Source: Chiloscyllium plagiosum (lineage: Eukaryota). From it: 50,406 bases of DNA. The stretch spans positions 10,595,165 through 10,645,570 of the forward strand of contig NC_057756.1 of the NCBI RefSeq assembly GCF_004010195.1, in the 5' to 3' direction. Below, piece by piece: positions 6,001-49,910 of the stretch (the stretch's first letter is position 1; each line of letters starts with the position of its first letter). The notes below the pieces were generated by a model. That model saw only the letters and a list, made by a program, of their open reading frames with translations. It was not told where the DNA came from and did not search any database. A program made the translations under genes and the position numbers.

Positions 6001-9000
6001 TGAACACTGTACATTGAACCCTGGGTACTGTGCACTGAACACTGGACACTGTGCACTGAACACTGGGCACTATGCACTGAACACTGTGCACTGATCACTG
6101 GGCACTGTGCATTGAACACTGGGCACTGTGCACTGAACATTGAAGCCTGGGTACTGTGCACTGAACACTGGGCACTGTGCACTGAACACTGGGCACTGTG
6201 CACTGAACATTGAAGCCTGGGTACTGTGCATTGAACACTGGGCACTGTGCACTGCAGATTGAACACAACACTGTACATTGAACACTGGGCACTGTGCACT
6301 GAACATTGAACACAACACTGTGCATTGAACACTTGGCACTGTGCACTGAGCATTGAACACTNNNNNNNNNNNNNNNNNNNNNNNNNNNATTGAACCCTGA
6401 ACATTGAACACAACTTTGTGCATTGAACACTGGGCACTGTGCACTGAACACTGGGCTTGGTGCACTGAACACTGTGAACTGTGCATTGAACACTGATCAC
6501 TGTGCATTGAACACTGGACACTGAACATTGAACACTGGGCACTGTGCATTGAACACTGGGCACTGTGCACTGAACACTGTGAACTGAACATTGAACACTG
6601 ATCACTGTGCATTGAACACTGGGCACTGTGCATTGAACACTGGGCACTGTGCACTGAACACTGGGCATGGTGCACTGAACATTGAACACTGTACACTAAC
6701 ACAAGGCACTGTGCACTGTGTACTGAACATTGAACACAACACTGGGCACTGAGCACTGTGCAAGAATACTGGGCACTGTGCATAAACACTGAATATTGAA
6801 CCCTGAACATTGAACACAACATTGTGCATTGACCACTGGGCACTGTGCATTGAACACTGGGCACTGTGCATTGAACACTGGGCACTGTGCATTGAACCCT
6901 GGGCACTGTGCACTGAACACTGGGCATGGTGCACTGAACACTGTGAACTGAACATTGAACACTGATCACTGTGCATTGAACACTGGGCACTGTGCATTGA
7001 ACACTGGGCACTGAACATTGAACACTGTACACTGTGCATTGAACATGGAACACTGAACACTGTGCACTGAACATGGAACGCTGAACACTGGGCACCGTGC
7101 ATTGAACACTGGGCACTGAACATTGAACACTGTACACTGTGCACTGAACATGGAACACTGAACACTGTGCACTGAACACAGCGCACTGAATATGGAACAC
7201 TGAACGCTGTGCACTGAACATTGAACACTGTACACTAACACAGGACACTGTGCATTGAACACTGATCACTGTGCATTGAACACTGGACACTGAACATTGA
7301 ACACTGGGCACTGTGCATTGAACAGTGGGCACTGTGCACTGAACACTGTGAACTGAACATTGAACACTGATCACTGTGCATTGAACACTGGGCACTGCGC
7401 ATTGAACACTGGGCAGTGTACACTGAACACTGGGCATGGTGCACTGAACATTGAACACTGTACACTAACACTGTGCACTGTGTACTGAACATTGAACACA
7501 ACACTGTGCACTGAGTACTGTGCAAGAATACTGGGCACTGTGCATAAACACTGAATATTGAACCCTGAACATTGAACACTGGGCACTGTGCACTGAACAC
7601 TGGGCATGGTGCACTGAACATTGAACACTGTACACTAACACAGGGCACTGTGTACTGAACATTGAACACTGATCACTGTGCACAGAGCACTGTGCAAGAA
7701 TACTGGGCACTGTGCATAAACACTGAACATTGAACCCTGAACATTGAACACAACTTTGTGCATTGAACACTGGGCACTGTGCATTGAACACTGGGCACTG
7801 TGCATTGAACACTGGGCACTGTGCACTGAACATTGGGCATGGTGCACTGAACACTGTGAACTGAACATTGAACACTGATCACTGTGCATTGAACACTGGG
7901 CACTGAACATTGAACACTGGGCACTGTGCACTGAACACTGGGCATGGTGCACTGAACATTGAACACTGTACACTGTGCACTGAACATGGAACACTGAACA
8001 CTGTGCACTGAACATTGAACACTGTACACTAACACAGGACACTGTGCATTGAACACTGATAACTGTGCATTGAACACTGGGCACTGAGCATTGAACACTG
8101 TGAAATAAACACTGGGCACCGCGCACTGAACACTGGGCACTGAACATTGAACACTGTACACTGTGCACTGAACACTGTGCACTGAACATGGAACACTGAA
8201 CACTGCGCACTGAATATGGAACACTGAACGCTGTGCACTAAACATGGAACACTGAACACTGCGCACTGAACATGGAACACTGAACACTGGGCACTGAGCA
8301 TTGAACACTGTGAAATAAACACAGGGCACTGTGCACTGAACACTGGGAAATGTGCACTTAACATTGAACACTGATCACTGTGCATTGAGCATTGGGTGCT
8401 GTGCACTGAACACTGGGCAATGGGCACTGAGCATTGAACACTGTGAAATAAACACTGGGCACCGTGCACTGAACACTGGGCACTGAACATTGAACACTGT
8501 ACACTGTGCACTGAACATGGAACACTGAACACTGCGCACTGAACATGGAACACTGAACACTGCGCACTGAATATGGAACACTGAACACTGCGCACTGAAT
8601 ATGGAACACTGAACACTGTGCACTGAACATTGAACACTGTACACTAACACAGGACACTGTGCATTGAACACTGATAACTGTGCATTGAACACTGGGCACT
8701 GAGCATTGAACACTGTGAAATAAACACTGGGCACCGTGCACTGAACACTGTGCACTGAACATGGAACACTGAACACTGCGCACTGAATATGGAACACTGA
8801 ACACTGTGCACTAAACATGGAACACTGATCACTGGGCACTGAGCATTGAACACTGTGAAATAAACACTGGGCACCGTGCACTGAACACTGGGCACTGAAC
8901 ATGGAACACTGAACACTGTGCACTGAATATGGAACACTGAACACTGTGCACTGAACATTGAACACTGTACACTAACACAGGACACTGTGCATTGAACACT

Positions 9001-10450
9001 GATCACTGTGCATTGAACACTGGGCACTGAACATGGAACACTGAACACTGTGCACTGAACATGGAACACTGAACACTGCGCACTGAATATGGAACACTGA
9101 ACACTGTGCACTGAACATTGAACACTGTACACTAACACAGGACACTGTGCATTGAACACTGATCACTGTGCATTGAACACTGGACACTGAGCATTGAACA
9201 CTGTGCATTGAATACTGGGCACCGTGCACTGAACACTGGGCACTGTGCACGGAATATTGAACATTGAACATTGTGCATTGAATACTGGACACTGTGCACT
9301 GAACACTGCACTGAACACTGGACATTGTGCACTGTACACTGTGCACTGAACACTGGGCATGGTGCACTGAACATTGAACACTGTACACTAACACAGGGCA
9401 CTGTGCACTGTGTACTGAACATTGAACACAACACTGTGCACTGAGCACTGTGCAAGAATACTGGGCACTGTGCATAAACACTGAGTATTGAACCCTGAAC
9501 ATTGAACACAACATTGTGCATTGAACACTGGGCACTGTGCATTGAACACTGGACACTGTGCACTGAACATTGAACACTGTACACTAACACAGGCACTGTG
9601 CATTGAACACTGTGCACTGTGCATTGAACACTCGACACTGAACATTGAACACTGTGCATTGAATACTGCGTACTGTGCACTGAACACTGCACTGAACACT
9701 AGGCACTGTACATGGAATATTGAACATTGAACATTGTGCATTGAATACTGGACACTGTGCACGGAACACTGGACATTGTGCACTGAACACTGCAGTGAAC
9801 ACTGGACATTGTGCACTGAACAATGGGCATTGTGCACTGAACACTGGACATTGTGCACTGAACACTGGGCACTGTGCACTGAATATTGAACATTGAACAC
9901 TGGGCACTGTGCACTGAACACTGCATTGAACACTGGACATTGTGCACTGAACACTGTGCATTGAATACTGCGCACTGTGCACTGAACACTGGACATTGTG
10001 CACTGAATACTGCACTGAACACTGGGCACTGTGCACTGAACATTGAACATTGTACACTGAACACTGTGCATTGGACATTGAACACTGAACACTATGCATT
10101 GAACACAGGGCACTGTGCATTGACCACTGAAAACTATATATTGAACACTGGGCACTATGCACTGAACATTGAACACAACACTGCATTGAACACTGGGCAC
10201 TATGCACTGAACACTGGTCACTGTGCACTGAACATTGAACACCGTGCACTGTGCTCTGAACATTGAACACAACACTGCATTGAACACTGGGCACTGAACA
10301 TTGAACACTAAACACTGAATACTGAACACTGTGCACTGAACGCTGCACCCTAAACACTGAACACTGCACACTGAACATGGAACACTGAACACTGTGCACT
10401 GAACATGGAACACTGAACACTGCGCACTGAACATGGAACACTGAATACTG
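1..10450. repeat. 7-bp minisatellite/satellite array (CTGAAYA, CAGAAYA, CTGTGCA, CTGGGCA, TTGAACA variants), interrupted by an N gap at 6362-6388
   Basis: Continuous 7-bp periodicity read directly. The long minus-strand ORFs (VQCSVFS-type peptides) are a by-product of the repeat. Confidence 0.97.
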
Positions 10451-13426: not shown

Positions 13427-14390
13427 GTTATGGAGGTTACGGTGGATTGGCCATGCTAAATTACCCATAGTGCCCAGGGATGTGCAGGTTACGGTGGATT
13501 AGCCATGCTAAATTACCCATAGTGCCCAGGGATGTGCAGGTTAGGGTGGATTGGCCATGGTAAATTACCCATAGTGCCCAGGGATGTGCAGGTTACAGTG
13601 GATTGGCCATGGTAAATTACCCATAGTGCCCAGGGATGTGCAGGTTAGGGTGGATTGGCTATGGTAAATTCCCCATAGTGCCCAGGGATGTGCAGGTTAG
13701 GGTGGATTGGCCATGCTAAATTACCCATAGTGCCCAGGGATGTGCAGGTTAGGGTGGATTGGCCATGGTAAATTACTCATAGTGCCCAGGGATGTGCAGG
13801 TTAGGGTGGATTGGCCATGCTAAATTACCCATAGTGCCCAGGGATGTGCAGGTTAGGGTGGATTGGCCATGGTAAATTACTCACAGTGCTCAGGGATGTG
13901 CAGGTTAGGGTGGATTGGCTATGGTAAATTACTCATAGTGCCCAGGGATGTGCAGGTTAGGGTGGATTGGCCATGGTAAATTACCCATAGTGCCCAGGGA
14001 TGTGCAGGTTAGGGTGGATTGGCAATGGTAAATTACTCATAGTGCCCAGGGATGTGCAGGTTAGGGTGGATTGGCCATGGTAAATTACTCATAGTGCCCA
14101 GGGATGTGCAGGTTATGGTGGATTGGCCATGCTAAATTACCCATTGTATCCAGGATGTGCCAGTTAGGGTGGATTGACTATGCTAAATGGCCCATAGTGC
14201 CAATGGATGTGCAGGTTAGGGTGGATTGGCCATGCTAAATTACCCATAATGCCAATGGATGTGCTGGTTAGGGTGGATTGGCCATGCAAATTTACCCATA
14301 GTGCACTGGTATGTGCAGGTTAAGGTGGATTGACCATGCAAAATTACCCATAGTGCACCGGTATGTGCGGATTAGGGTGGATTGACCATG

Positions 14391-14484
14391 GCTGGAAATG
14401 TGTTGCTGGAAAAGCGCAGCAGGTCAGGCAGCATCCAGGGAACAGGAGAATCGACGTTTCGGGCATAAGCCCTTCCTCAGGAAA
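14391..14484 (-). mobile_element. 94-bp PLE terminal-repeat insertion in the satellite, 7-bp TSD, hammerhead core at 14453-14480
   Basis: GACCATG duplicated at 14384-14390 and 14485-14491; minus strand reads CTGAGGA-A-GGGC-TTAT-GCCC-GAAA-CG-TC. Confidence 0.88.
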
Positions 14485-16798
14485 GACCATGCTAAATTGA
14501 ACCATAGTGTCCAGAGATTTGCAGGTTCGTGTGGATTGGCCATGCTAAATTACCCGTAGTGCCCAGGGATGTGCCAGTGCGGGTGGATTGCCCATGCTAA
14601 TTTGTCCTGGAGTACCCAGGGGTGTGGAGGTTTGGGTGGATTGGCCTTGCTAAATTACCTGTCGTGCTCAGGATGCACAGTTTTGGGTGTGCAGACCATG
14701 TTAAATTGCCCATAGTGTCCAGGGATGTGCAGGTTACGGTGGATTGGCCATGTTAAATTACCTGTAGTGCCCAGAATGCGCAGTTTACGGTATATTGTCC
14801 ATGCTAAATTACCCATAGTGCCCAGGGACGTGCAGGTTCGGATGTATTGCCCATGCTAATTTGTCCCAGAATGCTGAGCGATGTGCAGCTTCAGGTGCAT
14901 TTGGCCATGCTAAATTGTCCCACAGTGCCTAGGGATGTGGGGGTTAGGGGGAATTGGCCATGCTAAATTAGCCACAATGCCCAAGGATGTGCATGTTAGG
15001 ATGGATTGACCATGCTAAATTTTCCTATAGTACACTGGTATGTGCAGGTTAGCGTGGATTGGCCATGTTAAATTGTTCCATAGTGCCCAGAGCTGTGCAA
15101 GTTAGGTTGGATTGGCTGTGCTTATTTGACCCATAGTGCCTAGGGATGTGGTGGGTAGGTGGGGAATTGGCTGTGCTGAATTAGCCACAATGCCCAGGGA
15201 TGTGCAGGTTAGGGTGGGATTGGCCATGCTAAATTACCCATAGTGCCCAGGAATGTGCAGGTTAATGTGGAATAGCCCTGCAATATTAGCCATACCATCC
15301 AGCGATGTGCATGTTAGGGTGGATTGGCCATGCTAAATTACACATAGTGCCCAGCGATGTGCATGTTAGGGTGGATTGGCCATGCTAAATTACCCATAGT
15401 GCCCAGCGATGTGCATGTTAGGGTGGATTGGCCATGCTAAATTACCCATGATTCCCCGGATGCGCAGGTTACAGTGTATTGGCCATGCTAAATTACCCAT
15501 AATGCCCAGCGATGTGCAGGTTAGTGTGGATTGGCTGTTCTAAATTGTGCCATAGTGCCCAGGGTTGTGGAGGTTAGCGGGGAATTGGCTGTGCTAAGTT
15601 AGCCACAGTCCCACAGTGCTCAGGATGTGCAGGTTCGGGTGAATTTGCCATGCCAATTTAGCCGTAGTGCCTTGGGATGTTCAGGTTAGGGTGGATTGGC
15701 CAAGCAAAATTGTCCCATAATGCACAGGAATATATAGGTTAGGGTGGATTGGCCGTGCTGAATTACACCACAGTGCCCAGGGATGTGCAGGTCAGGGTGG
15801 ATTAGCCATGCTAATTTAACCATTGTGCCCATGGATATGCTGGGTAGGTGAATTGACCATGCTAAATTGTTGCATAGTGTGCAGGGATATGCAGGCTCGG
15901 GTAGATTGGCCATGCTAAATTGTCCCACAGTGCCCAGGGATGTGCATGTTTGGATGGACAGGCCATGCAAAATTGTCCCACAGTGCCCAGGGATGTGCAG
16001 GTTAGGGTTGATCGACGCTGCTAAATTACCCCAGTGCCCAGGGATGTGCACATTCTGATGGATTGGCCATGCTAAATTGTCCCATAGTGCCCAGGGACGA
16101 GCCGTGTTCGGTGGATTGACCATGCTAAATTACCCATACTTTCAAAGGATGTGCAGGTTTGGGTGGATTGGCCATGCTAAGTTACCCGTAGTGCCCAGGG
16201 ATGTGCAGGTTAGGGTGAATTCGCTGTGCTAAATTCCCCATAGTGCTCAGGGATAACTCTGTTAGGGTGGATTGGCCTTCCTAATTTGCCCATTGTCCAT
16301 AGGGATGTGCGTGTTCTGGTGATTTGCCCATGCTAATTTGTCCCTTTGTGACCAGAGGTGTGCAGGTTTGGGTGTTTTGGCCATACTAAAATGTCCCACA
16401 GTGCACAGGGATGTGCAGTTTCGGGTGGATTGGCCATACTAAATTACCCATAGTGCCTAGGGTTGTGCAGGTTTGGGTGGATTGGCCATTCTAAATTACC
16501 CAAAGTGCCACGAGATGTGCAGGTTCTGGTGGATTGACCTTGCTATATTGTCCTGTTGTGTCCAGGGTTGTGCAGCTTTGGGTGGATTTGCCATGCGAAA
16601 TTTCACATAGTGCCCAGGGATGTGCAGGTTATGGTGGATTGGCCTTGCAGAATTACCCATAGTGCCCAGGGATGTGGACGTTGGGGTGGATAGGCCATGC
16701 TCAATTAGGTGCACAGCTCAGGGTTGTGCAGGTTAGGCCATGCCAGATTTTCCCATACTGCCCAGGGATGTGCCGGTTAGGGTGAATTGGCCAAGGTA

Positions 16799-17641
16799 AA
16801 AACAATGACTGCAGATGCTGGAAACCAGATTCTGGATTACAGTGGTGCTGGAAAAACACAGCAGTTCAGGCAGCATCTGAGGAGCAGGAAAATCGACGTT
16901 TCCGGCAAAAGCCCTTCATCAGGAATAAAGGCAGAGAGCCTGAAGGGTGGAGAGAAAAGCTAGAGGATGGTGGGGGTGGGGATAGAGTAGCATAGAGTAC
17001 AATAGGTCAGTGGGGGAGGAGATGAAGGTGATAGGTCAGGGAGGAGAGGGTGNNNNNNNNNNNNNNNNNNNNNNNNNNNNNNNNNNNNNNNNNNNNNNNN
17101 NNNNNNNNNNNNNNNNNNNNNNNNNNNNNNNNNNNNNNNNNNNNNNNNNNNNNNNNNNNNNNNNNNNNNNNNNNNNNNNNNNNNNNNNNNNNNNNNNNNN
17201 NNNNNNNNNNNNNNNNNNNNNNNNNNNNNNNNNNNNNNNNNNNNNNNNNNNNNNNNNNNNNNNNNNNNNNNNNNNNNNNNNNNNNNNNNNNNNNNNNNNN
17301 NNNNNNNNNNNNNNNNNNNNNNNNNNNNNNNNNNNNNNNNNNNNNNNNNNNNNNNNNNNNNNNNNNNNNNNACCAGGTCGTCACGGAGGGAATGGTCTTT
17401 GCGGAAGGCGGAAAGGGGTGGGGAGGGAAATATATTCCTGGTGGTGGGGTCAGGTTGGAGGTGGCGGAAATGTCAGCAGATGATTTGGTTTATGCGAAGG
17501 TTGGTAGGGTGGAAGGTGAGCACCAGGGGCGTTCTGTCCTTGTTACAGTTGGAGGGGTGGGGTCTGAGGGCGGAAGTGCGGGATGTGGACGAGATGTGTT
17601 GGAGGGCATCTTTAACCACGTGGGAAGGGAAATAGCGGTCT
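16799..17641 (-). mobile_element. 5'-truncated Penelope-like element (Neptune-like) inserted in the satellite; N gap inside; hammerhead core at 16895-16922
   Basis: Minus strand of 17372-17640 translates DRYFPSHVVKDAL...KDRTPLVLTFHPTNLRINQIIC*HFRHLQPDPTTRNIFPSPPLSAFRKDHSLRDDLV, resembling the PLE RT thumb/linker; terminal repeat has CTGATGA-A-GGGC-TTTT-GCCG-GAAA-CG-TC. Confidence 0.85.
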
Positions 17642-17835
17642 ATGCCCAGGGATGTGCAGGTTAGGGTGGACTGGCCATGCTAAATTACCCATTTTGTCCC
17701 AGGATGTGGAGGTTCGGGTGGATTAGCCCTGCTAACTTAGCCATCGTGCCCATGGATGTGCCGGTTCGGTGGATTGGCCATGCTAAATTGTCGCATAATG
17801 TGCAGGTTCGGATAGATTGGCTATGTTAAATCGTC

Positions 17836-18158
17836 GCTGAAAATGTGTTGCTGGAAAAGCACAGCAGGTCAGGCAGCATCCAAGGAGCAGGAGAATCGAC
17901 GTTTCGGGCATAAGCCCTTCTTCAGGAATCGGCTGAAGAGCTTCTGTGCAGAGGAGATGACCTGGGGTGTGCAGTGAGAGAGGGACTCACTGAAATCCTT
18001 GTAGTGGGAGGAAGAAAGCTTCTTCAAGGAAGGCATCCTTGCAAGAGGATTCGCAGTAGATTAAAATCTTCGAGGACAAAGTGAGGACTGCAGATGCTGG
18101 AGATCAGAGCTGAAAATGTGTTGCTGGAAAAGCACAGCAGGTCAGGCAGCATCCAAGG
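17836..18158 (-). mobile_element. 323-bp PLE-derived insertion with 50-bp terminal direct repeats, 7-bp TSD, hammerhead core at 17898-17925
   Basis: TSD AATCGTC at 17829-17835 and 18159-18165; identical 50-mers at 17836-17885 and 18109-18158. Confidence 0.88.
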
Positions 18159-21100
18159 AATCGTCCCACAGTGTGTAGGGATGTGCAGGTTAGGGTGAAT
18201 TGGCCATGCTAAATTAGGCATACGGCCCAGGAATGTGCAGGTTAGGGTGAATTGGCCATGCTAAATAACTTACAGTTCCCAGGGATGTGCAGGTTATCGT
18301 AGGGTGGCCGTGCTGAATTACCCATAGTGCCCAGGAATGTGCATTTTAAGGTAGAATGGCTGTGCTAAATTGTCGCATAGTGCCCAGGATGTGCAGGTTA
18401 GGGTGGACTGGCCGTGCTAAATTACACATGGTGTCCAATGATGTGCAGGGTAGGCTGGATTGGCAATGCAAAATTGCCTGTCGTGTCCAGGGATGCGCTG
18501 GTTAGGGTGGATTTGCCATGCTAAATTACCCTTAGTGCCCAGGGATGTACAGGTTCGGGTGGATTGGCCGTGCTAAATTACCCTTAGTGCCCAGAGATGT
18601 ACAGGTTCGGGTGGATTGGCTGTGCTAAATTAGCCATAGTGCTCAGAGATGTGCAGGTTTGGAGTGGATTGGCCAGGCTAAATTACCCATAGTGTCCAAA
18701 GATGTGCAGGGTAGGAGGGGTTATCCATGCTCAATTGTCACATAGTGCCCAGGGATGTGCCGGTAGGGTGGAGTAGCCATTCACAATTACCCGTTACATC
18801 CAGCGATGTGCAGGTTAGGGTGGATTGGCCATGCCAAATTGCTCATAGTGCCCTCGGATGTACAGGTTCAAGTGGATTGGCCATGCTAAATTACCCATAG
18901 TGCTCAGGAATGTGCAGGTTTGGATGGATTGACCATGTTAAACTATCCGTAGTATCCAAGGATGACCCAGTTAGGGTGGATTGGCCATGCTAAATTGCCC
19001 ACAATGCTCAGGGATGTGCATGTTTGGGTGGATTGGGAATGCTCAATTATTGCATAGTGCCCAGGGATGTGTAGGTTAGGGTGAATTGGCCAGGCGAACT
19101 TAGCCACAGTGCCCAAGATTTGCAGGCTTGGGTGGATTAGCCCTGCTAGATTAGCCATCGTCCCCAGGGATGTGCAGGTTAGGGTAGATTGGCCATGCTA
19201 AATTAGCCATAGTACCCAGGGATGTGCAGGTTAGGGTGGATGCTCCATGCTAATTTGACCCATAGTACCCAGGGATGTGCAGGTTAGGGTGGGTTGGCCT
19301 TGCTAAATTACCCAGTGCCCAGGGATTGCAGGATAGGATGGATTAGCCCTGCTAATATAGCCATAGTGCCAAGGGATGTGCCAGTTAGGTTGATTGACCC
19401 TGCTAAATTGTCCCACAGTGCATTGGGATGTGCAAGTTAGGGTGGATTGGCCATGCTAAATTGTCCCATAGTGCCCAGCGCTGTGCAGGTTATCGTAGAT
19501 TGGCCATGCTGAGTTACCCACAGTTCCCAAGGATGTGTAGGTTAGGGTGAACTGGCCATGCTAAAGTTTCCCATAGTGCCCAGTGTTGTACAGCTTAGGG
19601 AGGATTGGTCATTCTAAATTTTCCCATAATGCCCAGGGATGTGCAGGTTGGGTGAATTTGTCATGCTAAATTACCCAGTGCCCAGGGATGAACAGGATAG
19701 GGTGGATTAGCCCTATTAATTTTACCCAGTGCCCAGGGATGTACAGGATAGGGTGGATTAGCCCTATTAATTTTACCATAGTGCCCAGGGATATGCAGGT
19801 TAGGGTAGATTGGCTGTGCTAATGTACCCACAGTGTCTAGGGATGCACAGGTTCAGTGGATTGGCCATGGTAAATTACACAGTGTTCAGGGATATGCAGG
19901 TTAGGGTGGATTGGCCTTGCTAAATTATCCATACTGTGCAGGGATATACAAGATACCATGGATTTACAATACTAAATTGCCCATAGTGCCCAGGGATGTG
20001 CAAGTTAGGGTGGATTGCCGTGCTAAATTGTCCCATAGTGCCCAGCGCTGTGCAGGTTATCGTAGATTGGCCATGCTGAGTTACCCACAGTTCCCAAGGA
20101 TGTGCAGGTTAGGGTGAACTGGCCATGCTAAAGTTTCCCATATTGCCCAGTGGTGTACAGGTTAGGGAGGATTGGTCATTCTACATTTTCCCATAATCCC
20201 CAGGAATGTGCAGGTTGGGTGAATTGGCCATGCTAAATTACCCAGTGCCCAGAGATGTACAGGATAGGGTGGATTAGCCCTATTAATTTTACCATAGTGC
20301 CCATGGATGTGCTGGTTAGGTGGATTGGCCCTGCTAAATTGTCCCAGAGCACGTGGGGATGCACAGGTTTGGTGAATTGGCCATGCCAAATTACCCATAG
20401 TGCTCAGGGATGTGCAGGTTAGGGTGCATTGGCTGTGCTAAATTATCCATAGTGTCCAGGGATGCACAAGATAGTGTAGATTGACAAACTAAATTGTCCA
20501 TAGTGCCCAGGGATGCGCAGGTTAGTGTGAATGTCCCATGCTAATTTGACCCATAGTGCTCAGGGATATGCAGGTTTGGGTGGATTAGCCCTGCTAAATT
20601 ACCCATAGTGCCCAGGGATGTGCAGGTTCAGATGGACTGGCCCTGCTAAATCATCCATAGTGCCCAGGGATGTGCAGGTTCAGATGGACTGGCGATGCTA
20701 AATTGTCTCATAGTGTGTAGAGAATCCAATTTCAGGTGGATTGGCCATGCTTAATTACCCATAGTGCCCAAGGATATTCAGGTTAGGGTAGATTGGCAAT
20801 GCTAAATTAGCCATAGTACCCAGGGATGTGCAGGTTATGGTGGATTGGCCATGCTAAATGACCCATAGTGTCCAGGAATGTGCGTGTTTGGGTGGATTGA
20901 CCATGCTAAATTTTCACACAGTGCCTGGGATGTGCAGGTTAGGTTGAACTGGCCATGTTAAATTTTCCCATAGTGCTCAGAGATGTGCAGGTTTGGAGCG
21001 GATTGGCCGGGCTAAACTACCCATAGTGTCCAAAGATGTGTAGGGTAGGAGGGGTTGGTCATGTTCAATTGTCACATAATACACAGAGATGTGCAGGTAG

Positions 21101-24100
21101 GGTGGAGTGGCCATTCACAATTGCCTGTAACATCCAGCGATGTGCAGGTTAGGGTGGATTGGCTGTGCAAATTTGTCCCATTTGCCCAAGGATGTACAGG
21201 TTAGGGTGGATTGGCCATGCTAAATTACCCATAATGCCCAGGGATGTGCAGGTTAGGGTGGATTGGCCGTGCTAAATTACCCATAGTGCCCAGCGATGTG
21301 CAGGTTAGGGTGGATTGGCCGTGCTAAATTAACCATAGTGCCCAGGAATGTGCAGGTTAGGGTGGATTGGCCGTGCTCTTTTGTCCCATTTGCCCAGGGA
21401 TGTCCAGCTGAGGGTGGATTGGCCATTATAACTTATCCGTGGTGTCGAAGGATGACCCAGTTAGGGTGAATTGGCCATGCTAAATTGCCCATAGTGCTCA
21501 GGGATGTGCATGCTAGGGTAGATTGGACATGCTAAATTGTTCTGTTGTACCCAGGGATGTGCAGGTTAGGGTGTATTGGCCATGCTCAATTGTCGCATCG
21601 TGCCCAGGATGTGCAGGTTAGGGTGGATTGGCCATGCTAAATTACCCATAGTGCTCAGGGATGTGCAGGATAGGGTGGATTAGCCATGCTAAATTACCCA
21701 TAGTGTCCAGGGATGTACAGGATAGGGTGGATTAGCCCTGCTAATATAGCCATAGTGCCAAGGGATGTACCAGTTAGGTGGATTGGCCCTGCTAAATTGT
21801 CCCACAGCACGTAGGGATGTACAGGTTAGGGTGGATTGGCCATGCTCAATTGTCGCATAGTGCCCAGGGATGTGCAGGTTAGGGTGGATTGGCCATGCTC
21901 AATTGTCGCATAGTGCCCAGGGATGTGCAGGTTAGGGTGGATTGGCCGTGCTAAATTGTCCCATAGTGTCTGTGGATGTGCAGGTTAGGGTGGATTAGCC
22001 GTGCTAAATTACCCATAGTGTCCAGGGATGTACAGGATAGGGAGGATTGGCCATGCTAAATTACCCATAGTGTCCAGGGATGTACAGGATAGGGTGGATT
22101 AGCCATGCTAAATTACCCATAGTGTCCAGGGATGTACAGGATAGGGTGGATTAGCCCTGCTAATATAGCCATAGTGCCAAGGGATGTACCAGTTAGGTGG
22201 ATTGGCCCTGCTAAATTGTCCCACAGCACGTAGGGATGTACAGGTTAGGGTGGATTGGCCATGCTCAATTGTCGCATAGTGCCCAGGGATGTGCAGGTTA
22301 GGGTGGATTGGCCAGGTTAACTTAGCCATAGTGACCAGGGATTTGCAGGCTTTGATGGATTAGCCATCGTCCCCAGGGATGTGCAGGTTAAGGTGGAAGC
22401 CCCATGTTAAATTGTCCCATAGTGCGTAGGGAGTCCAGTTTTGGGTGGATTGGCCATGCTTAATTACCCATAGTTCCCAGGGATAACCAGGCTAGGGTGG
22501 ATTGGCCTTGATAAATTTTCAGTGCCCAAGGATGTGTAGATTAGGGTGAACTGGCCATGCTAAAGATTCCCATACTGCCCAGTGATGTGCAAGGTAGGGT
22601 GGATTGGCCATGCTAAATTACCGATCGTGTCCAGGGATGTGTGCAGGTTAGGGTGGATTGGCTGTGCTAAATTATCCAGTGCCCAAGGATGTACAGGATA
22701 GGATGGATTAGCCCTGCTAATATAGCCATAGTGCCAAGGGATGTACCAGTTAGGTGGATTGGCCCTGCTAAATTGTCCCACAGCACATAGGGATGTACAG
22801 GTTAGGGTGGATTGGCCATGCTAAATTACCCATTCTGTCCAGGGATGTGCAGGATAGGGTGGGTTGGCTTTGCTAAATTACCCAGTGCCCAGGGATTACA
22901 GGATAGGATGGATTTACCTTGCTAATATAGCCATAGTGCCCAGGGATGTAAAAGTTAGGTTGATTGACCCTGCTAAATTGTCCCACAGTGCATTGGGATG
23001 TGCAGGTTAGGGTGGATTGGCCGTGCTAAATTGTCCATAGTGCCCAGCACTGTGCAGGTTAGGGTGGATTGGCCATGCTAAATTGTCCCACAGTGCATAG
23101 GGATGTGCAGGTTAGGGTGGATTGGCCATGCTAAATGGTCCCATAGTGTCCAGGGGTGTGCAGGTTATCGTATATTGGCCATGCTGAATTATCCTTAGTG
23201 CCCAGGGATGTACAGGATAGAGTGGATTAGCCCTACTAATTTAGCCAAAGTGCCCATGGATGTGCTGGTTAGGTGGATTGACCCTGCTAAATTGTCCCAC
23301 AGTGCATAGGGATGTGCAGGTTAGGATGGATTGGCCAGGCTAAATTACCCATAGTGCCCAGTGATGTGAATGTTAGTGTGGATTGGCCATGCTAAATTAC
23401 CCATAGTGCCCAGTGATGTACAGGTTAGGGTGGATTTGCAATGCTAAATTACCCTTAGTGCCAAGGAATGTGCAGGTGAGGATGGATTGATTGGCTGTAC
23501 TAAATTACACATAGTGCACAAATATGTGTAGGTTAGCATGGTTTGGCCACACATAATTGCCCATAGTGTCCAGGAATGTGCAGGTTAGGGAGGATTGCCA
23601 TGCTAAATTACCCATAGTGCCCAGGGATTTATATGATAGGGTGGATTGGCCGTGTTAAATTACCCATAGTGCCCAGGGATTTCCATGATAGGGTGGATTG
23701 GCCATGTTAAATTACCAATAGTATCCAGTAATATGCAGGTTTGGATGCTTTGCCCATGTTAATTTGTCCCATAGTGCCCAGGGATGTGCAGATTTGGGTG
23801 GATTGGCCGTGCTAAATTGTCCCACAGTACGCACGGATGAGCAGGTTAGGGTGGATTGGCCAAGCTAAATTACCCATTTCATCCAGAGATTCACAGGTTT
23901 GGGTGGATTGGCCGTGCTAACTTACCCATAGTTCCCAGGGATGTGCAGGTTAATGTAGTTCGGCTATGCTAAATTACCCATATTGCCTAGGGATGTAAAG
24001 ATTCCGGTGGATTCACCATGCCAAATTGTCTCACAATGCCCAGGAATGTGCAGGTTTGGAGTGGATTAGCTGTGCTAAATTACCCATAATGTCGAGGGAT

Positions 24101-27100
24101 GTGCAGGTTAGGATGGATTGGCCATGCTAAATTGCCACCTCGTGCTCAGGGATGTGCAGTGTCGGGTGGATTGGCCGTGCTAAATTACCCATAGTTCACA
24201 GGATGGCCAGGTTATGGTGGATTGGCCCTGCAAAATTACCCATAGTGCCCAAGTATATGCAGGTTGGCGTGGTTTGGCCATACTAAATTGCCCGTTGTGT
24301 CCAGGGATGAGCAAGTTAGAGTGGATGCCCCATGGTAATTTGACACATATTGCCCAGGGATGTGCAAATTACTGTGGACTGGCCATGCAAAATTAGCCAT
24401 CGTGCCCATGGATGTGCATGCAATGGGTAGATTGGCCATGTTAAATTGTTCCTTAGTGTGCAGGGATGTGCTAAATTACCCATACTGTCCAGTGGATGTG
24501 CAGGTTAGGGTGGATTGGCCATAATAAATTGCCAGTTGTGTCCAGGGATGAGCAGAATAAGGTGGATGTGGATGCCCCATGGTAATTTGACTCATAGTGC
24601 CCAGGGATGTGCATGTTTGGGTAGATCGGCCATGTTAAATTGTTCCTTCGTACCCAAAGAGATGTGCAGGTTAGGGTGGATTGGCCACACTAAATTGTCC
24701 CATAGTGCCCAGGGGTATGCAGATTAGGGTGGATTGGCCATACTAAATTGTCCCATACTGCCCTGTTTATGCAGGTTAGGGTGGATTGGCCATACTAACT
24801 TGTCCCATCGTGTCCAAGGAGGGGCAAGGTATGGTGGATTGGCTAGGCTAAATAAGGAATAGTACCCAGGGAAGTGCAGGTTAGGGTGGATTGGCAATGC
24901 TAAGGTACCCACAGTGCCCAGGGATGTGCAGGTTAGGGTGGATTGGCAATGCTAACGTACCCATAGTGCCCAGGAATGAACAGGTTACGATGGATTGGCC
25001 ATGCTAAATTACCCATCGTGCCCATGAATGTGCAGGTTACAATGGATTGGCCGTGCTAAATTATCCCATAGTGCCCAGGAAGTGCAGGTTACAATGGATT
25101 GGCCGTGCTAAATTATCCCATAGTGTGCAGGGATGTGCAGGTTACAATGGATTGGCCATGCTAAATTATCCCATATGCCCAGGAATGTGCAGGTTACCAT
25201 GGATTGGCTGTGCTAAATTGTCCCATAGTGCACAGGGATGTGCAAGTTCTGGTGGATTGGCCATGCTAAATTACCCATAGTGTATAGGAATGTGCAAGTT
25301 ACGATGGATTGGCCGTGCTAAATTGTGCAGATTAGGGTGGATTAACCATGCTAAATTTTTCTATATTGTCCAGGGATGTGCAGGTTAAGATAGATTAGCC
25401 CTGCTAAATTAGCTGTAGTGCCCAGACCTGTGCAGGTTCGGGTGGATTGGCAATGATCAATTACCCATAGTGCCCAGGGATGTGCAGGTTAGGGTGGATT
25501 GGCCATGCTAAATTGTCCCATAGTGCCCAGGGATGTGCAGGCTAGGGTGGATTGACCATGCTAAATTACCCATAGTGCCCAGTGATGTGTAAATTAGGAT
25601 GGATTGGCCATGCTAAATTGTCGGATACTGCCCACAGATTTGCAAGATCTGGTGGATTGTCCATGCTAAATTAGACCTAGTGCTCAGATATGTGGAGATT
25701 AGGGAGGATTGGCCATGTTAAGTTTTTCCACAATTCCCAGGGATGTGCAAGGTACGGTGGATTGGCCATGCTAATTTACCCATTGTGTCCAAGGATGTGC
25801 GGGTTAGGGTGGATTGGCCATGCTAAATTACCCATTGTGTCCAAGGATGTGCAGGTTAGGGTGGTTTGCCCATGTTAATTTGTCCCACAGTTCCCAGGAA
25901 TGTGCAGCTGAGGGTATATCTGCCATGCTAAATTCACCGTAGCACGTAGGGACGTGCAGGTTAGGGTGGATAGGCCATGCTAAATTACCCATAGTGTCCA
26001 GGGATATGTAGGTTAGAGTGGATTGGCCATGCTAAATTACCCATAGTGTCCAGGGATATGCAGGTTAGGGTGGATAGGCCATGCTAAATTACCCATAGTG
26101 CCCAGGGATGTGCATGTTAGGGTGGATTGGCAATGCTAACGTACCCTTGTGCCCAGTGACGTGCAGGTTGCGATGGATTGGCTGTGCTAAATTACCCATA
26201 GTGTACAGGGATGTGCACATTAGGGTGAATTGGCCATACTAAATTGTTGAATAGTGCCCAGCAATGTGTCAATTTAGTGTGGATTAGCCGTGCTAAATAA
26301 CCCATTGTGTCCAGGGATTTGCAAGTTAGGATTGACTGGCCATGCTAAATTACCCATAGGACTCAGGGATGTGTAGGTCAGGTAGATTGGCCACGCTGTA
26401 TTACCCATACTGCCCAGGGATTTGCAAGACCTGGTGGATTGCCCATGCTAAGTTAGACATAGTGCTCAGAAATGTGAAGGTTAGGGAGAATTGGCCATGC
26501 TAAATTTTCCCACAGTTCCCAGGGATGTGCAAGGTATGGTGGATTAGCTGTGCTAAATTACCCAAGGTGCCCAGGTATGTGCTGTTAGGGTGAATTGGCC
26601 ATGCTAAATTATCCCTAGTGCCCAAGGATCTGCAGGTTCGAGTGGATTGGCCATGCTAAATTGCCCATAGTGCCCAGGGATGTGCAGGTTATGGTGGATT
26701 GGCCATGCTAAATTACCCATAGTGCCCAGGGATGTGCAGGTTATGGTGGGTTGGCCATGCTAAATTATGCATTGTTCACAGTATGGACAGGTTATGGTAG
26801 ATTGGCATTGCAAAATTACCCATAGTGCACAAATATGTGCAGGTTAGCATATTAAATTGCCCATAGTGTCCAGGGATGAGCAGATTAGGGTGGATGTCCC
26901 ATGGTAATTTGACCCATACTGCCCCTGGGGTGAATATGTTTGGGTAGATTGGCCATGTTAAATTGTTCCTTCATCCCCAGAGTTGTGCAGATTAGGGTGG
27001 ATTGGCCATATTAAATTGTCCCACAGTGCCCAGGAATGTGCAGGTTAGGGTGGATTCGCCATGCTGCATTTTCCCACAGTGCCTAGGGATGTGCAGGTTA

Positions 27101-29330
27101 GGTTGAATTGGTCATGCTAAATTACACGCAGTACCCAGGGATGTACAGGTTCAAGTGGATTAGCCCTGCTAAATTATTCATTTTGTCCAGGGATGTGCAG
27201 GTTAGGGTGGATTAGCATTGCTATGTTACCCATACCGCCCAGCAATGTGCAGGTTAGAGTGGATTGGCCATGCCAAATTTCCCCTAGTGCCTAGGGATGT
27301 GCAGGTTAGGGTGGATTGGCTGTGCTAAATTACCCATGATGTGCGGGTTACGGTGGGTTGGCCATGCTAAATTACTCACAGTGCCCAGGGATGTACATGT
27401 TAGGGTGGATTGTCCATGCTAATTTGTCCCTTTTGCGCCCAGGGATGTGCAGTTTTGGCAATTTTGGCCATGCTAAATTACCCAGAGATGCGCAGGGTAG
27501 GGTGGATTGGCTATGCTTGTTTGTTCCTTAGTGCCCAGGAATGTGCAGGTTCAGGTGGATTGGCCATGCTAAATTACCCTTAGAACCCAGCGCTGTGCAG
27601 GTTAAGCTGGATTTGCTGTGGTAAATTGTCCCATCATGCCCAGAGATATGAAGGTTAGGATGGATTGGCCGTGCTGATTTAACCATAGTGCCCAGGGATC
27701 TACCGGTTAGGGTGGATTGGCCGTGCTACATTGTTTCATAGTGTCCAGGGACGTGCAGATTAGGGTGGATTGGCCATGCTAATTTGTCCCATTGTGTCCA
27801 ATGATGTGCAAGGTACAGTGGATTGGCCATTCTAAATTACCTATAATGTTCTGGATTGTGTAGCTTGGAGTGGATTGGCCATGCTAAATTGTCCCACAAT
27901 GCCCAGAAATGTGCAGGTTAGGGTGGATTGGTGATGCTAAATTACCTGTAGTGCCCAGGGATGTGCAGGTTTAGTTGGATTGGCCATGCTAAGTCACCAA
28001 TACTGCCCAAGGTGCGCAGGTTACGGTGTATTGGCTATGCAGAATTGTCCCATAGTGCCCAGAGATGTGCAGATTAGGATGGATTGGCCATGCTAAATTG
28101 ATCCATAGTGGTCAAGGATGTGCAGGTCACGGTGTATTGGCCATACTAAATTACCCATAGTGCTCAGTGGTGAGCAGCTTGGGTTGGATTGGCCATTCTA
28201 ATTTGACTCATAGTGCCCAAGGAAGTGCAGGTTAGTGAGGATTGGCCACGCTAAATTGTCCCTTTGTGCTCAGGGATGTGTATTTTAGGGTGAATTATCC
28301 GTGCTAAAATACGATAGTTTCTCGGGATGTGTAGGTGAGGGGGCATTGACCATGCTAAATTATCCATTGTGCCTAGCGATATCCGTATTAGGGTGGATGG
28401 ATGTTGCTAAATTGCCGATTATCAACAATGATGTGCAGCTTAGGGTGGATGCTCCATGCTAATTTGTCCCTTTGGTCCCAGGGATGTGCAGGTTAGGGTG
28501 TCTTGGCCATGCGAAACTGTCTCTCCGTGCCCAGGGATGCGCAGGTTAGGGTAGATTGGCTCTACCAAATTACCCATTGTGGCCAGGTGTGTGCAGGTTA
28601 GGGTGGATTGGCCATGGTAAATTATCCATACTGTGCAGGGATGTGCACATTAGGGTGGATTCGCCATGCTAAATTGTCCCATACTGTTAAGGGATGTGCA
28701 GGTGTGGGTGGATTGGACGTATTAAATTACCCATAGTGCCTGGGATGTGCAGGTGGGGATGGATTGGCCATGCTAAATTGTCGCATAGTGCCCAGGGTTA
28801 TGCAGTTCGTGTAGATTGGCCATACTAAATTGCCCATAGTGCCCAGGGATGTGCAGGTTAGCGTGGGTTGCCCATGCTAATTTGTTCCATAGTGCCCCAG
28901 AATGTGCAGTTGTAGGTGTATCAGCTGTGCCAAATTCTCCATAGTGCCCAGGGATGTGCGGGTTAGGGTTGCATACTTTTCCCACAGTGCCCAGGGATGT
29001 GCCCAGGTTTGGGTAGATTGGCCATGCTAAATAATCCATAGTGCCCAGCAATATCCCTGTTCGGGTGGATGGGCATTGCTAAATTGGCGATTAGCAACAG
29101 TGATGTGCAGCTTAGCACTCTATGCTATTTTGTCCCTTTGTTCCCAGGGATGTGCAAGTTAGGATGGATTGCCCATGCGAAATTGGGCCAGAGTGCCCAT
29201 GGATATGCAGGTTAGGATAGATTAGCTAAACTGCCACATAGTGCCCAGGGACGTGCAGTTTCGGGTAGATTGGCCATGCCAAATTACCCATAGTTCTCTA
29301 GGATGTGCAGGTTAATTGGGTTAGCCATGG

Positions 29331-33154: not shown

Positions 33155-33649
33155 GGCACTATCCACAACTCCACCATCCTTAGTGTTGTCTGCAAATTTA
33201 CTAACCCACCCTTCTACACCCTCATCCAGGTCGTTTATAAAAATGGCAAACAGCAGTGGCCCCAAAACCGATCCTTGTGGTCCACCACTAGTAACTGAAC
33301 TCCAAGATGAACATTTCTCATCAAACACCACCCTCTGTCTTTTTTCAGCTAGCCAATTTCTGATCCAAACCGCTAAATCACCCTCAATCCCATGCCATAG
33401 CCTATCCTGGGGAACCTTATCGAACATCTTACTGAAATCCATATACACCACACCAACCGGTTTTCCCTCATCTACCTGTTTGGTCACCTTCTCAAAGAAC
33501 TCAATAAGGTTTGTGAGGCACGGCCTACCCTTCACAAAACCGAGCAGACTATCCCTAATCAGCTTAGTCCTTTCCAGATGATTATAAATCCTTCTCTTAT
33601 CACCTTTCCCAACACTTTACCCACAACCGAAGTCAGGCTCACTGGCTTA
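33155..33649 (-). mobile_element. CR1 RT core fragment (downstream part of the CR1 split by R2)
   Basis: [10 protein letters not shown]...[12 protein letters not shown]...[19 protein letters not shown]...SKFADNTK; begins with [10 protein letters not shown]. Confidence 0.92.
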
Positions 33650-34185
33650 TTTTGAAACACTCTGGGAATGCCTTTTCCAAGTCTTTACATCGCTCGTCGA
33701 TGTTTTGTACTGTCCAGCATCACCACAGGCTAAGGGCCAGGTGTTACTGGTGTTACATGAGGCTCGGTGCTTTCGTCAATTAGCGGGTTTTACGACTTAT
33801 TGGTGTTGGTGGACCGGCGTACCCCGTTTTTTTTTTTTTTTACTTTTATATCCCTTTTTTTTTGGTGGGGGGGTTAGCCGATCCTTGTCTCGGCGAAAGA
33901 TCTTGTCTGACCGTTTGCGGTTATTTGCTGACTTGTCACTGCAGAGTTGTAAGAGTTTGCGTGTCAGTGACAGAGTGAGTCTTGATCTCTTTTTGGCGAA
34001 CGTCTCGTATCTCTCGATGCCGAGGAATTTCACGAGGCGGTTAGTCAGGCCCAGCCACTTGCCTCGTGCGCCCATCACGCAGCCAAAGTATTTTGGGGTC
34101 CGCGCCTCCCGTCAATTCCGTGACCTCGGCATTTAGCTGTTTATGTTTGTCACTTTTTTTCCCCCCGCCATGCTGTTTCCAGTGT

Positions 34186-34650
34186 TTTCCTGTCGTTTTT
34201 GTACCGCACTGTGACAACCGCAATCTTCTGATTTTTTTTTTTAAAATATGAGACTTATTTATGTTTGGTTTTTGTTTTGGTTTGGTGCTGACTGCTTCTC
34301 GCGGAAGCATGTCTCCAATTCCTCTTTTGAGACAGGACAAGTGGAAGAGGTCGGCGCCCCCATGATCTCGCGAGCTGGTTGGCGCCGGTTAGTTTTGTAG
34401 AGCTGCTGTGTCGCTCTATTTCCTGTCGTTTTTGTACTGCACTGTGACAACCGCAATCTTCTGATTTTTTTTTTAAAATATGAGACTTATTTATGTTTGG
34501 TTTTTGTTTTGTTTTGGTGCTGACTGCTTCTCGCGGAAACATGTCTCCAATTCCTCTTTTGAGACAGGACAAGTGGAAGAGGTCGGCGCCCCCATGATCT
34601 CGCGAGCTGGTTGGCGCCGGTTAGTTTTGTAGAGCTGCTGTGTCGCTCTA
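34186..34650. repeat. Near-perfect tandem duplication of about 233 bp inside the R2 remnant
   Basis: 34186-34418 is repeated at 34419-34650 with few differences. Confidence 0.95.
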
Positions 34651-35496
34651 CGTGCTGCCCACCGTATTTTGTCTCCGGTATTGCTACCGGTCCTCCTTGC
34701 CTCTTTCGGCCCAATCTTGTTGAGGCCTCTTGCGTTTGCTCTGTCCTTTCCTACTATTCAATAGCAGGTCAGTAATACTTCCCACAAGGCCCACCCCCAA
34801 GGGCAAGGGTGTCCAGGTCATTCCTCGCCATCAGGAGCTCCTCCGCTTGTGTCAGCTGGTCACCTACGTCCCGACGTTTCGGGATCGAAGCCGATGTTCT
34901 TCAGCCGGCTCTTTGGCGCAGGTTTTGATCGTTGGGATTTTCCTGGACGCTGCCTCTGATTCGTGCCAGTCTACACCTGTCATTGACTTGTTGGTGGTCG
35001 GCACCTCCGTCAGGAGCCCTGCGTTTGTCTGAGATTTGTTTCAGAGTGTTTGTTTTTAAGGATGCTGGCGATGGATTTGTTTATAAAATCTGCATCCTGC
35101 GAATCTCCCTTCCACGTTCCCTCGGGAGTGCCACCCCCTCCTGTGACCATACGCGGATCACTTCTCCCTGGTTTGCCAAAGACTTGGGGTGCAAGGTTTG
35201 AGGCATTTTTCGTTTTTGTAGAATCGGCTGTCTGTGCCTCTCGTGTTGACCGAGGCCCGACTGAGTAGAAAGCTGTTAGTCACACGCGCTGCGTGCAAAG
35301 TCCCCTGTTGGGGGCTTATGTTTGTGCCTTTGCTTTTTGGATCGTGGTAGGAGATTGCATGATATTCTCCCGCTTTGTCGCAGCCTGAATATTTTGTTTG
35401 AATGCTCTTTACTCCGTGCACTTTAGTCAAATGAACAGGCTCACTGTGGGGAAGAGGGTGTCAGAGTCCTTGCAGGACAGCCCATCAATGGGGTAT

Positions 35497-35820
35497 GATT
35501 AGATTAGATTAGATTAGATTTAGATTAGATTAGATTACAGTGTGGAAACAGGCCCTTCGGCCCAACAAGTCCACACCGCCCCGCCAAAGCGCAACCCACC
35601 CAGACCCCCTACATTTACCCCTTACCTAACACTACGGGCAATGTAGCATGGCCAATTCACCTGACCCTGCACATCTTTGGACTGTGGGAGGAAACCGGAG
35701 CACCCGGAGGAAACCCACGCAGACACGGGGAGAATGTGCAAACTCCACACAGTCAGTCGGCTGCGGTGGGAATTGAACTCTGGCGCTGTGAGGCAGCAGT
35801 GCTAACCACTGTGCCACCGT
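35497..35820 (-). mobile_element. HE1 V-SINE inserted in the R2 ORF, TSD GGGGTA
   Basis: (GATTA)n tail at 35497-35536; GGGGTA at 35490-35495 and 35821-35826; removing it rejoins VVIHYP to IDGLSC. Confidence 0.92.
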
Positions 35821-36012
35821 GGGGTAGTGGATAACTACCTCTGGGACAAATGTTCTGTCGTACGCTGGCTCGATAACAACTCCTTCCATGAAGGTAGTTG
35901 CATCAGCTGTTTCCTCGCCAGTCTCACTTATAGTCTTTTTGTAGTCTGTGCCCCGTCAGGTCTTGATAACTTCAGTTGGAGAAGGTTTGGGTGGTGATGC
36001 TTATGGAGACCA

Positions 36013-36070
36013 TGACCAGATTCATCTCTACTCCCCATCTTGAACAAGGTGACGACATTTGCTAGCCTTC
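36013..36070 (-). mobile_element. CR1 fragment, upstream part of the CR1 split by R2
   Basis: RLANVVTLFKMGSRDESG is the segment that precedes NYRPVSLTS in CR1 ORF2. Confidence 0.8.
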
Positions 36071-36387
36071 CAGGCATGATGATCTTTTGACAAGCTGACC
36101 TGAAGGTTGAGGCCGTGCAGCGGGAGGTCGGTGGGAGCGTGAGGGGATTGGTGCTGGGTCTGCAGTGGAGACCGGGCCCCAACCCCGAGCCTATAGAAAA
36201 AAGCCAGACAGGAAACGGTTAAGGTGGCCCTGGGAGTGGGGGAGGGGGAGGTGACACAGCGCTGTGTCCTCAACGCAACAGTGACGCGGGAGAAACTGAC
36301 TTCAGGCCGTCAGGAAGAGAATTGAACCGGCTGTCAGCGAGCCCATTGGACAGGGGGCAAAGCTGTCTGCATTGTCGCCATACGAGC

Positions 36388-49100: not shown

Positions 49101-49910
49101 ATGGAGAAACCGTGGAATTGCAAGGATTGTGGGAAGGAATTCAGATTCCCATTTAAACTGGAGGTTTGCCGAATGCCTTCCCACCGGGGACCGGCCGTTC
49201 ACCTCCTCGGAGTGCGGAAAGGGGTTCAGCCAGTTGTCCACCCGACTGTCCCACCAGTTCACCACCGAGAGAAACCCTTCAAGTGCACCGACTGTGGGGG
49301 TGGCTTCAAAAACCCTCAAGACGTGATGGTACACCGGTGGCTTCACACAAGGAGGGGCCGTTCGCCTGCTCTCAGTGCGCCAGGATAGTGTCCGGCCTGC
49401 GGAGACACCAGCTCGTCCACACCGGGGAGGGGCCGTTCGCCTGCTCTCAGTGCGCCAGGATAGTGTCCGGCCTGCGGAGACACCAGCTCGTCCTCACCGG
49501 GGAGAGGCCGTTCACCTGCTCTCAGTGCGCCAGGATAGTGTCCGGCCTGCGGAGACACCAGCTCGTCCACACCGGGGAGAGGCCGTTCACCTGTGCCGTG
49601 TGCGGGAAGGGCTTCGGCTGCTCGTCCACCCAGCAGCAACACCAGCTCGTCCACACCGGGGAGAGGCCGTTCACCTGTGCCGTGTGTGGGAAGGGCTTCG
49701 GTGAATCCTCGGGGCTGCTGACTCCGCCGCGTCCACACCGGGGAGAGGCTGTTCCCTTGCGCCGTGTGCGGGAAGGGCTTCGATGAATCCTCGGGACTGC
49801 TGACTCACCGCCGCGTCCACACCGGGGAGAGGCCGTTCCCTTGCGCCGTGTGCGGAAAAGGATTCACTCAGTCCTCCAGTCTGGTGAGACACCAGCAGGT
49901 TCGCAAGTGA
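49101..49910 (+). pseudogene. C2H2 zinc-finger gene (about 10 fingers, MEKPW start), disrupted by several frameshifts
   Basis: HTGERPF linkers and CxxC...HxxxH units spread across different frames (shifts near 49180, 49260, 49350, 49723); TGA at 49908-49910; acceptor CTCCTTTTGCAG ending 48786 with CTGAC branch motifs upstream. Confidence 0.82.

Follow-up and report, generated by a model that had tools for sequence, protein, structure and literature searches.

Structure of the R2 copy in the window

R2 is a mobile element whose insertions are normally confined to ribosomal DNA. The stretch of the Chiloscyllium plagiosum genome analysed here (the window, 50,406 nucleotides) carries a decayed R2 copy on the minus strand, between 36004 and 33650, and a search of the window with Rfam gave 0 rRNA matches, in agreement with the original prediction of an R2 element outside rDNA. 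The window was searched by tblastn with named vertebrate R2 proteins. Matches were obtained for ZnF3 and ZnF2 (35507-35335, minus strand, with the R2 order kept), for ZnF1 plus Myb (35290-35018; sum E 1.5e-8 with P0001 of a shark and 8e-10 with P0002 of a turtle), twice for the pre-RT motif (34649-34500 and 34438-34268; E 1e-8 to 5e-8), and for the C-terminus of the endonuclease (34239-33935; E 2.4e-9). The predicted assignments to R2, read from the domain order, and to lineage A, read from the three fingers, were supported. With the full-length copy L063 as the reference (792-5072), the window copy covers positions 1319-2513 and 4459-5072.

All features of the locus lie on the minus strand. 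The 5' flank (36012..36072) is a stub of the host repeat, a LINE which we take from its motifs to be of the CR1 type; it ends 3 nt before the inferred nick, includes the GGGAGTA motif mimicking 28S, and is 81-90% identical to empty sites. At the 5' junction stands a 7-nt filler (36005..36011) that agrees in register with neither CR1 nor the element; the target lost 2 nt and was not duplicated. The N-terminal part of the R2 ORF (35821..36004) is 5'-truncated at reference 1319, and about 530 bp of the 5' end are missing, the ribozyme and the 5' UTR included. Directly before ZnF3 lies a later insertion of about 325 bp (35496..35820), a SINE presumably of the tRNA type, with a (CTAAT)n tail, a target duplication of TACCCC, membership in repeat families D1, D5 and I1, and a gap at its place in the alignment with L063. 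Remnants of ZnF3, ZnF2 and ZnF1 (35232..35495) are frameshifted and contain stops, the CCHH/CCHC/CCHH pattern being intact in sister copies, and are followed by the Myb remnant identified by tblastn, with the end KQISDKRR (35018..35160), and by the spacer and pre-RT (NTE) region (34486..35017), which reaches the left deletion breakpoint at reference 2513. A deletion of about 1.95 kb took the RT, thumb, linker, zinc knuckle and the PD of the PD..D motif; nothing is present between reference 2513 and 4459, as expected from the predicted loss of the whole RT. The C-terminal part of the restriction-like endonuclease (33930..34252) and the 3' UTR (33650..33929) complete the copy, which ends at 33650 with CAAAA, the 3' end of all family copies. 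The 3' part of the host LINE (33155..33649) starts with TAAGCC at the nick, codes for RT (Pfam RVT_1, E 1.4e-13), and is 75-85% identical to empty sites.

Empty CR1 sites match the two flanks in register, and the proposed nesting in a CR1 is supported, but the supposed 5' half of the host is a stub of only about 60 bp. The SINE, the 5' truncation, and the recurrence of this CR1 position across a large dispersed family were absent from the first reading. Elsewhere in the window, a 7-bp-period satellite (TGAACAC) occupies 1-10450, a 16-kb satellite with a 52-bp unit resembling the middle of the local SINE occupies 13434-29314, and C2H2 zinc-finger coding repeats lie at the right end (49351-49855).

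The internal deletion and the 232-bp tandem repeat

The abrupt jump from the pre-RT region to the endonuclease end was confirmed. Its junction is present twice, near 34253 and near 34485, a little lower than the predicted 34255-34280 and 34488-34515. The two junctions belong to a 232-bp tandem repeat (34186..34650). One base is exactly shared at the junction, and CTCATA is found at both sides with a four-base offset. More than half of the words of the window copy were present in eight read runs from six samples of two studies, one of the samples possibly being the source of the assembly. In X1 and in X6 the junction is crossed by a single contig whose depth is that of single-copy sequence (9.8 vs 9.3-10.0, and 27.4 vs 27), and these contigs mix variants of both repeat copies of the assembly. 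The deletion is therefore real, and the tandem repeat is unlikely; no piece bridging the repeat boundary was found among the contig pieces listed for X1 and X6, and it probably reflects an error of assembly or a variant carried only by the animal that was assembled. In raw-read run X10, sampled at about 4%, the junction was not covered. X5, from another species (share 0.04), gave family contigs at about 85%, among which no orthologue of the window locus was callable. The 5' end of the window copy would have been lost at insertion, and the internal loss of about 1.95 kb may go back to template skipping while the copy was being inserted, or to a later deletion of DNA. Taken alone, the window copy is an ordinary dead element.

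A dispersed family of lineage A R2 copies

Loci of the same family, referred to as family A, were collected from the 3.56-Gb assembly by three DNA searches (the best 40 of 67, 50 and 93 candidates) and two junction patterns. At least 70 element-bearing loci were identified including the window, or about 65 without duplicates, which is a lower bound, and they were found on most large contigs. Among the 29 matches of the 3'-end pattern, seven were dropped as untied to the element (6 matches were obtained in the control; L151 is possibly a divergent member). The copies are 68-90% identical, with reading frames broken in all; 28 of them retain the 5' end, and a full-length copy measures about 4280 nt.

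The RT half of the family matched PlaMe R2 (E 1e-100) and R2Tg (E 3e-93) far better than BoMo (E 1e-39), and the N-terminus matched R2Tg with E 1e-30. The pattern CCHH-CCHC-CCHH-Myb is intact in L062, L070 and L075. Family copies thus show the organization of R2 lineage A, with ZnF3 (CCHH), ZnF2 (CCHC), ZnF1 (CCHH) and Myb placed ahead of the RT and a restriction-like endonuclease at the C-terminus; the window copy shows the ZnF/Myb remnants and only the endonuclease end, the RT being deleted. A Utopia/NeSL identity, suggested by the pre-RT motif, was dropped, the Myb domain and three fingers being present and the best matches being R2-A.

The DNA tree, built from the terminal 590 nt of 46 copies after nine loci had been excluded (duplicates, very short or internally deleted ends), was ladder-like, as expected of one evolving source lineage, and the window copy had a terminal branch of 0.085. 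L086, L087 and L095 (on C28, C1 and C17) lie on three chromosomes and show 100% identity along 2-4.3 kb, 3' flank included, by very recent duplication or assembly error; L086 and L095, together with L160, were removed as duplicates before junctions were counted. At four loci (L083, L096, L165 and L168) the element resumes at points no more than about 25 nt from a common RT position, close to the 28S-target-like sequence GATTCCTAAG, two being internal deletions and two 5' ends.

R2 coding sequence was also found fused into unrelated gene models of other vertebrates, namely P0030 (a zinc-finger gene of Mustelus), P0002 (PDE3B of a turtle) and P0021 (ENOSF1 of a cuckoo), which hints at non-rDNA copies of R2 in these animals. 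P0030 groups with family A (100/98). Long contigs and gene-model fusions (P0030 of Mustelus; P0121-P0132, mostly of Chiloscyllium punctatum; P0123 of Scyliorhinus) give a similar hint of dispersal in other sharks.

28S-derived sequences at the ends of family A copies

Full-length copies begin with a head of upstream 28S sequence, which starts exactly at -28 in 13 of the 28 and in none beyond -29. The pattern of an HDV-like ribozyme was matched in 22 of the 28 copies with a 5' end, and its P1' strand pairs with 28S -28..-23 in 125 of 132 possible pairs; from pattern and pairing, a 5' HDV-like ribozyme is predicted for family A. The position -28 is the commonest cleavage site of R2, and duplications at the junction are propagated from rDNA, according to the portions consulted of an earlier study (PMC3774820). 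Older copies carry 28S -28..-11 only. Copies of a younger clade carry, ahead of this old head, a new and near-perfect one reaching to -5 to -1, in several junction forms, and the added heads therefore require re-insertion into real 28S.

Downstream 28S was found at three of 52 junctions, amounting to 14 nt at L077, to 63 nt followed by (GT)n at L153, and to 1.0-1.4 kb of decayed 28S at L158/L160. The last is a decayed rDNA locus with the 3' junction at the canonical 28S site. Canonical 28S insertion was not observed for the window copy or for most others, and is represented only by this 3' junction and by the 5' junction of a published orthologue. No intact or young family A copy was found at the six 28S-site loci examined, which are empty or occupied by another lineage, few rDNA units being assembled. 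No 3' transduction of non-28S sequence was seen, the sole shared flank being the 100% identical duplication of L086, L087 and L095.

Two further arrangements were noted. The 28S tails of L153 and L175, which belong to two different lineages, have almost the same end point (+62/63), following CCCACTG, and that of L200 stops at +55. At L101 (551-1124) and L161 (oriented), the 3' end of an R2 of another lineage, an 18-nt 28S remnant and a family A 5' end stand in tandem at a non-rDNA site, which was probably copied from an rDNA unit carrying two insertions.

Target preference and a hot spot within a CR1-type repeat

Among the 52 distinct 3' junctions, T was found at +1 in 47, A at +2 in 41 and G at +3 in 29, the 28S target being TAGC. 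One position of the CR1-type repeat, before TAGACCAGTGAG, holds 15 of these junctions, the window copy being one of the residents; with L108 (5' side only), L232 and L234 added, the total is 18 loci. The chance expectation for matches to this site is below 0.001 even with 100,000 sites, and the CR1 junction pattern gave 12 matches against 1 in the control. With no more than one mismatch allowed, 3357 empty sites were counted. When the empty CR1 site AAGAAGGGGAGTAGAGACAACCCTGGTAATTA|TAGACC was compared with 28S AAACGGCGGGAGTAACTATGACTCTCTTAAGG|TAGCC, 17 of the 32 upstream bases agreed, with one extra spacing base. The hot-spot position was the top or tied-top mimic of 28S among 5976 positions in each of the four CR1 loci scored, with a small margin (20 vs 18-20). 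L166 is inserted in reverse at the same place, and the reverse-strand site was the second-best mimic in one of the four loci.

The seven full-length copies at the CR1 site have differing heads, and the nine truncated ones are all truncated at different points. Labels for the CR1 site are scattered over the tree, 11 changes being forced by well-supported branches against a mean of 12.4 after shuffling. These heads, truncation points and forced label changes show the insertions at the CR1 site to be independent. In six of the nine truncated copies the target is kept to -1..-3 without duplication, in agreement with the top-strand nick 2 bp upstream described for R2 in the available part of a recent report (PMC12180492). 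L065 and L097 share a second position, in the RT 3' region of a CR1-type element (SLKV|A.QV..VKKAY by eye), with upstream sequence like TCCCTGAAAG|TAGC; a second CR1 hot spot is possible there.

Outside the CR1 site, a GGGAGTA-like motif was found 11-18 nt upstream of the 5' junction. At least six of its seven bases occur within the last 32 nt at 12 of the 36 non-CR1 sites against 1.1 expected (maximum 6 in 2000 draws); the motif was chosen after the CR1 site was seen, the 5' junctions were set semi-manually and partly by eye, and some of these 5' flanks may be secondary. The enrichment was also obtained with the 16 5'-truncated copies alone (p 0.0008), which could not have carried the motif in themselves. 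The preference for T at +1, the enrichment of the upstream motif and the CR1 hot spot set family A apart from R2NS elements, defined by lack of target preference. Nor is the CR1 site a strict new target, such as those of retargeted R2s of the R8 and R9 type, since it takes only 15 of the 52 junctions.

Comparison was made with the R2Bm RUM/RASIN model, as far as its source was available (PMC10499050). Family A has in common with it T at +1 (47/52), the primer-complementary TAG, an upstream motif for which a +1 spacing is tolerated, and a top-strand cut about 2 nt upstream; its natural motif GGGAGTA (-25..-19) overlaps the RUM core but is shifted downstream. The CR1 site itself fits the BoMo RASIN poorly (T-6 and T+1 only), and the +1 spacing is required. 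Apart from the bases that pair with the primer, off-targets of PRINT reportedly have little in common with 28S in the passages at hand (PMC11371274), whereas the natural strays of family A retain the upstream motif.

A second R2 lineage as a control

The R2s now located at 28S in the assembly form a second lineage (B), with about 50% amino-acid identity to family A. They were considered and rejected as its source, there being no long DNA match and a separate well-supported clade with P0001. Of 25 lineage B 3' junctions identified by pattern, 17 continue at least 55 nt into 28S and eight are strays, and none of the 25 is at the CR1 site; the equivalent pattern for family A gave 28S at 3/22 (Fisher p 0.0003), a contrast that may be due in part to the loss of A from rDNA. 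Straying is common to A and B, but use of the CR1 site is peculiar to A in these samples. On ordinary chromosomes, L205, L208, L209, L211, L212 and L213 (C16, C24, C26, C27, C37) have lineage B 3' ends that run on into 28S for 217 to >1497 nt, and are either dispersed R2-28S read-through copies or rDNA fragments. L179, L181, L182 and L183 consist of lineage B R2 in head-to-tail tandem arrays with no 28S between units.

Origin of the dispersed copies

Most probably, family A represents off-target fossils of masters that resided in rDNA, and the window copy is a dead, singly deleted member at a CR1 site mimicking 28S. Such masters would have been co-transcribed with 28S and released by the ribozyme at -28; the R2 protein would have bound GGGAGTA-like DNA through a ZnF/Myb/RT-6a surface and nicked before a T(AG) able to pair with the 28S-derived tail of the RNA, and the top strand would have been nicked about 2 nt upstream. 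Repeated insertion at the CR1 site would follow from its being a good mimic and from its presence in thousands of copies. Turnover of rDNA would later have erased family A from the rDNA seen in the assembly, leaving the strays. Off-target insertion is argued by the 28S heads and tails, by an orthologue resident in 28S, and by signatures the same as those of off-target R1 in Drosophila as described in the consulted portions of that study (PMC2718515). The predicted off-target or specificity-relaxed R2 is supported.

Three points count against masters in rDNA and speak for a lineage that left rDNA in this host, spread from dispersed copies and was partly retargeted to CR1, either as a generalist resembling R2NS or in the early stage of a target switch: no live family A copy was seen in rDNA, 49 of the 52 junctions lack a 28S tail, and dispersed full-length copies with the whole ribozyme are possible sources in principle. 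The contrast with lineage B points in the same direction, but is partly expected from the extinction of A in rDNA. Departure from rDNA is nevertheless unlikely in view of the fresh, near-perfect -28..-1 heads in the younger clade, the 28S tails at L077, L153 and L158/L160, the DNA-binding region about 85% identical to that of the 28S-resident orthologue, and the lack of any non-28S 3' transduction among the loci. It is to the same small degree probable that family A was an intrinsically loosely targeting vertebrate R2 with a site in the CR1 LINE, the most abundant LINE of the host, as a second standing target, its CR1 copies sustaining the family outside rDNA by read-through transcription and captured ribozyme, in a half-way target switch that possibly extends across sharks.

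The original prediction had also raised a non-autonomous, internally deleted family, of which the window copy would be a member mobilised in trans. The copy has no RT but retains the 3' UTR on which priming depends, and such elements (SIDEs) are known from Drosophila, with a similar internal deletion and retained 3' end (PMC3414825, in the portion available); these, however, have a ribozyme, are multi-copy and reside in 28S, and the window copy is none of these. In a genome-wide pattern search its deletion junction matched exactly at the window locus only (six 3-mismatch matches against 13 in the control), the deletion was present in 1/69 aligned family loci, and the deletions in L083, L096 and L089 have other breakpoints. 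Since the deletion is unique and the copy, starting at reference 1319, has no ribozyme, the idea fails and membership in the SIDE class is very improbable. Least credible is a false hot spot made from a single R2-in-CR1 chimera amplified by the CR1 machinery or by duplication: the CR1-site copies are all flanked by one repeat family and assembly duplicates exist at other loci, but the independent 5' junctions, with CR1 in register on both sides, refute it, and the dispersal of these copies in the tree and the reversed copy at the second-best mimic also stand against it.

Relation to known systems

The nearest published element is R2-1_STig of the zebra shark, a lineage A R2 entered with upstream 28S and an ORF cell of 1317 characters (PMC13188248 Table S2). 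Over its first 400 letters, its 5' head and ribozyme sequence pattern are the same as those of family A, its length is 4226 against about 4280 nt, and between ZnF3 and Myb it differs from L062 at 28 of 181 residues by eye (about 85% identity). R2-1_STig is listed with upstream 28S and a long ORF, whereas family A copies are dispersed and decayed. In that study R2s were chosen by their 28S flanks, and its passages and rows examined include no dispersed shark copies (PMC13188248).

Stray R2s and non-specific R2 families are already known from the accessible parts of two sources (PMC5035012, PMC13580325). Off-target R1 in Drosophila carries 7-28 bp of upstream and at most 14 nt of downstream 28S, often within repeats bearing 28S-like bases, and non-rDNA R2 copies occur in five Drosophila species (PMC2718515). 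The detailed set there is R1, the R2 strays being few and incomplete, in contrast to the about 65 vertebrate R2 strays, spread over a long lineage, and the single-nucleotide hot spot in a retrotransposon described here. R2NS-1_SMed and R2NS-1_CSi, flatworm families of the D and C clades called non-specific, resemble family A in their many copies outside 28S (PMC5035012), but family A is a vertebrate lineage A family that retains a 28S-like target preference and 28S-derived ends. Within the literature covered, with Repbase and subscription journals outside its scope, neither dispersed R2 copies in sharks nor a hot spot in CR1 were found described. As far as this literature reaches, the element lineage is already known, and the dispersal and the CR1 hot spot are apparently undescribed.

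Implications

R2 proteins of lineage A are under development for safe-harbour gene insertion, and the drivers of their off-target events are poorly known. The specificity of R2 is probably a continuum, with few R2s known to stray, as stated in the section seen of a 2026 review (PMC13580325). The present collection offers about 50 off-target junctions that a single lineage A R2 left naturally in the germline of one genome. Their upstream motif can be measured and their hot spot lies in a repeat, and the collection is likely to be a natural record of the mistakes made by an enzyme class in gene-therapy development. With a sister lineage that avoids the CR1 spot and a published orthologue that is apparently intact, the determinants of off-target insertion become directly testable. 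The hot spot is also a warning that abundant CR1-type repeats can act as decoy targets. For the host genome, family A constitutes a record, dated by divergence, of an rDNA parasite whose copies in rDNA have been erased.
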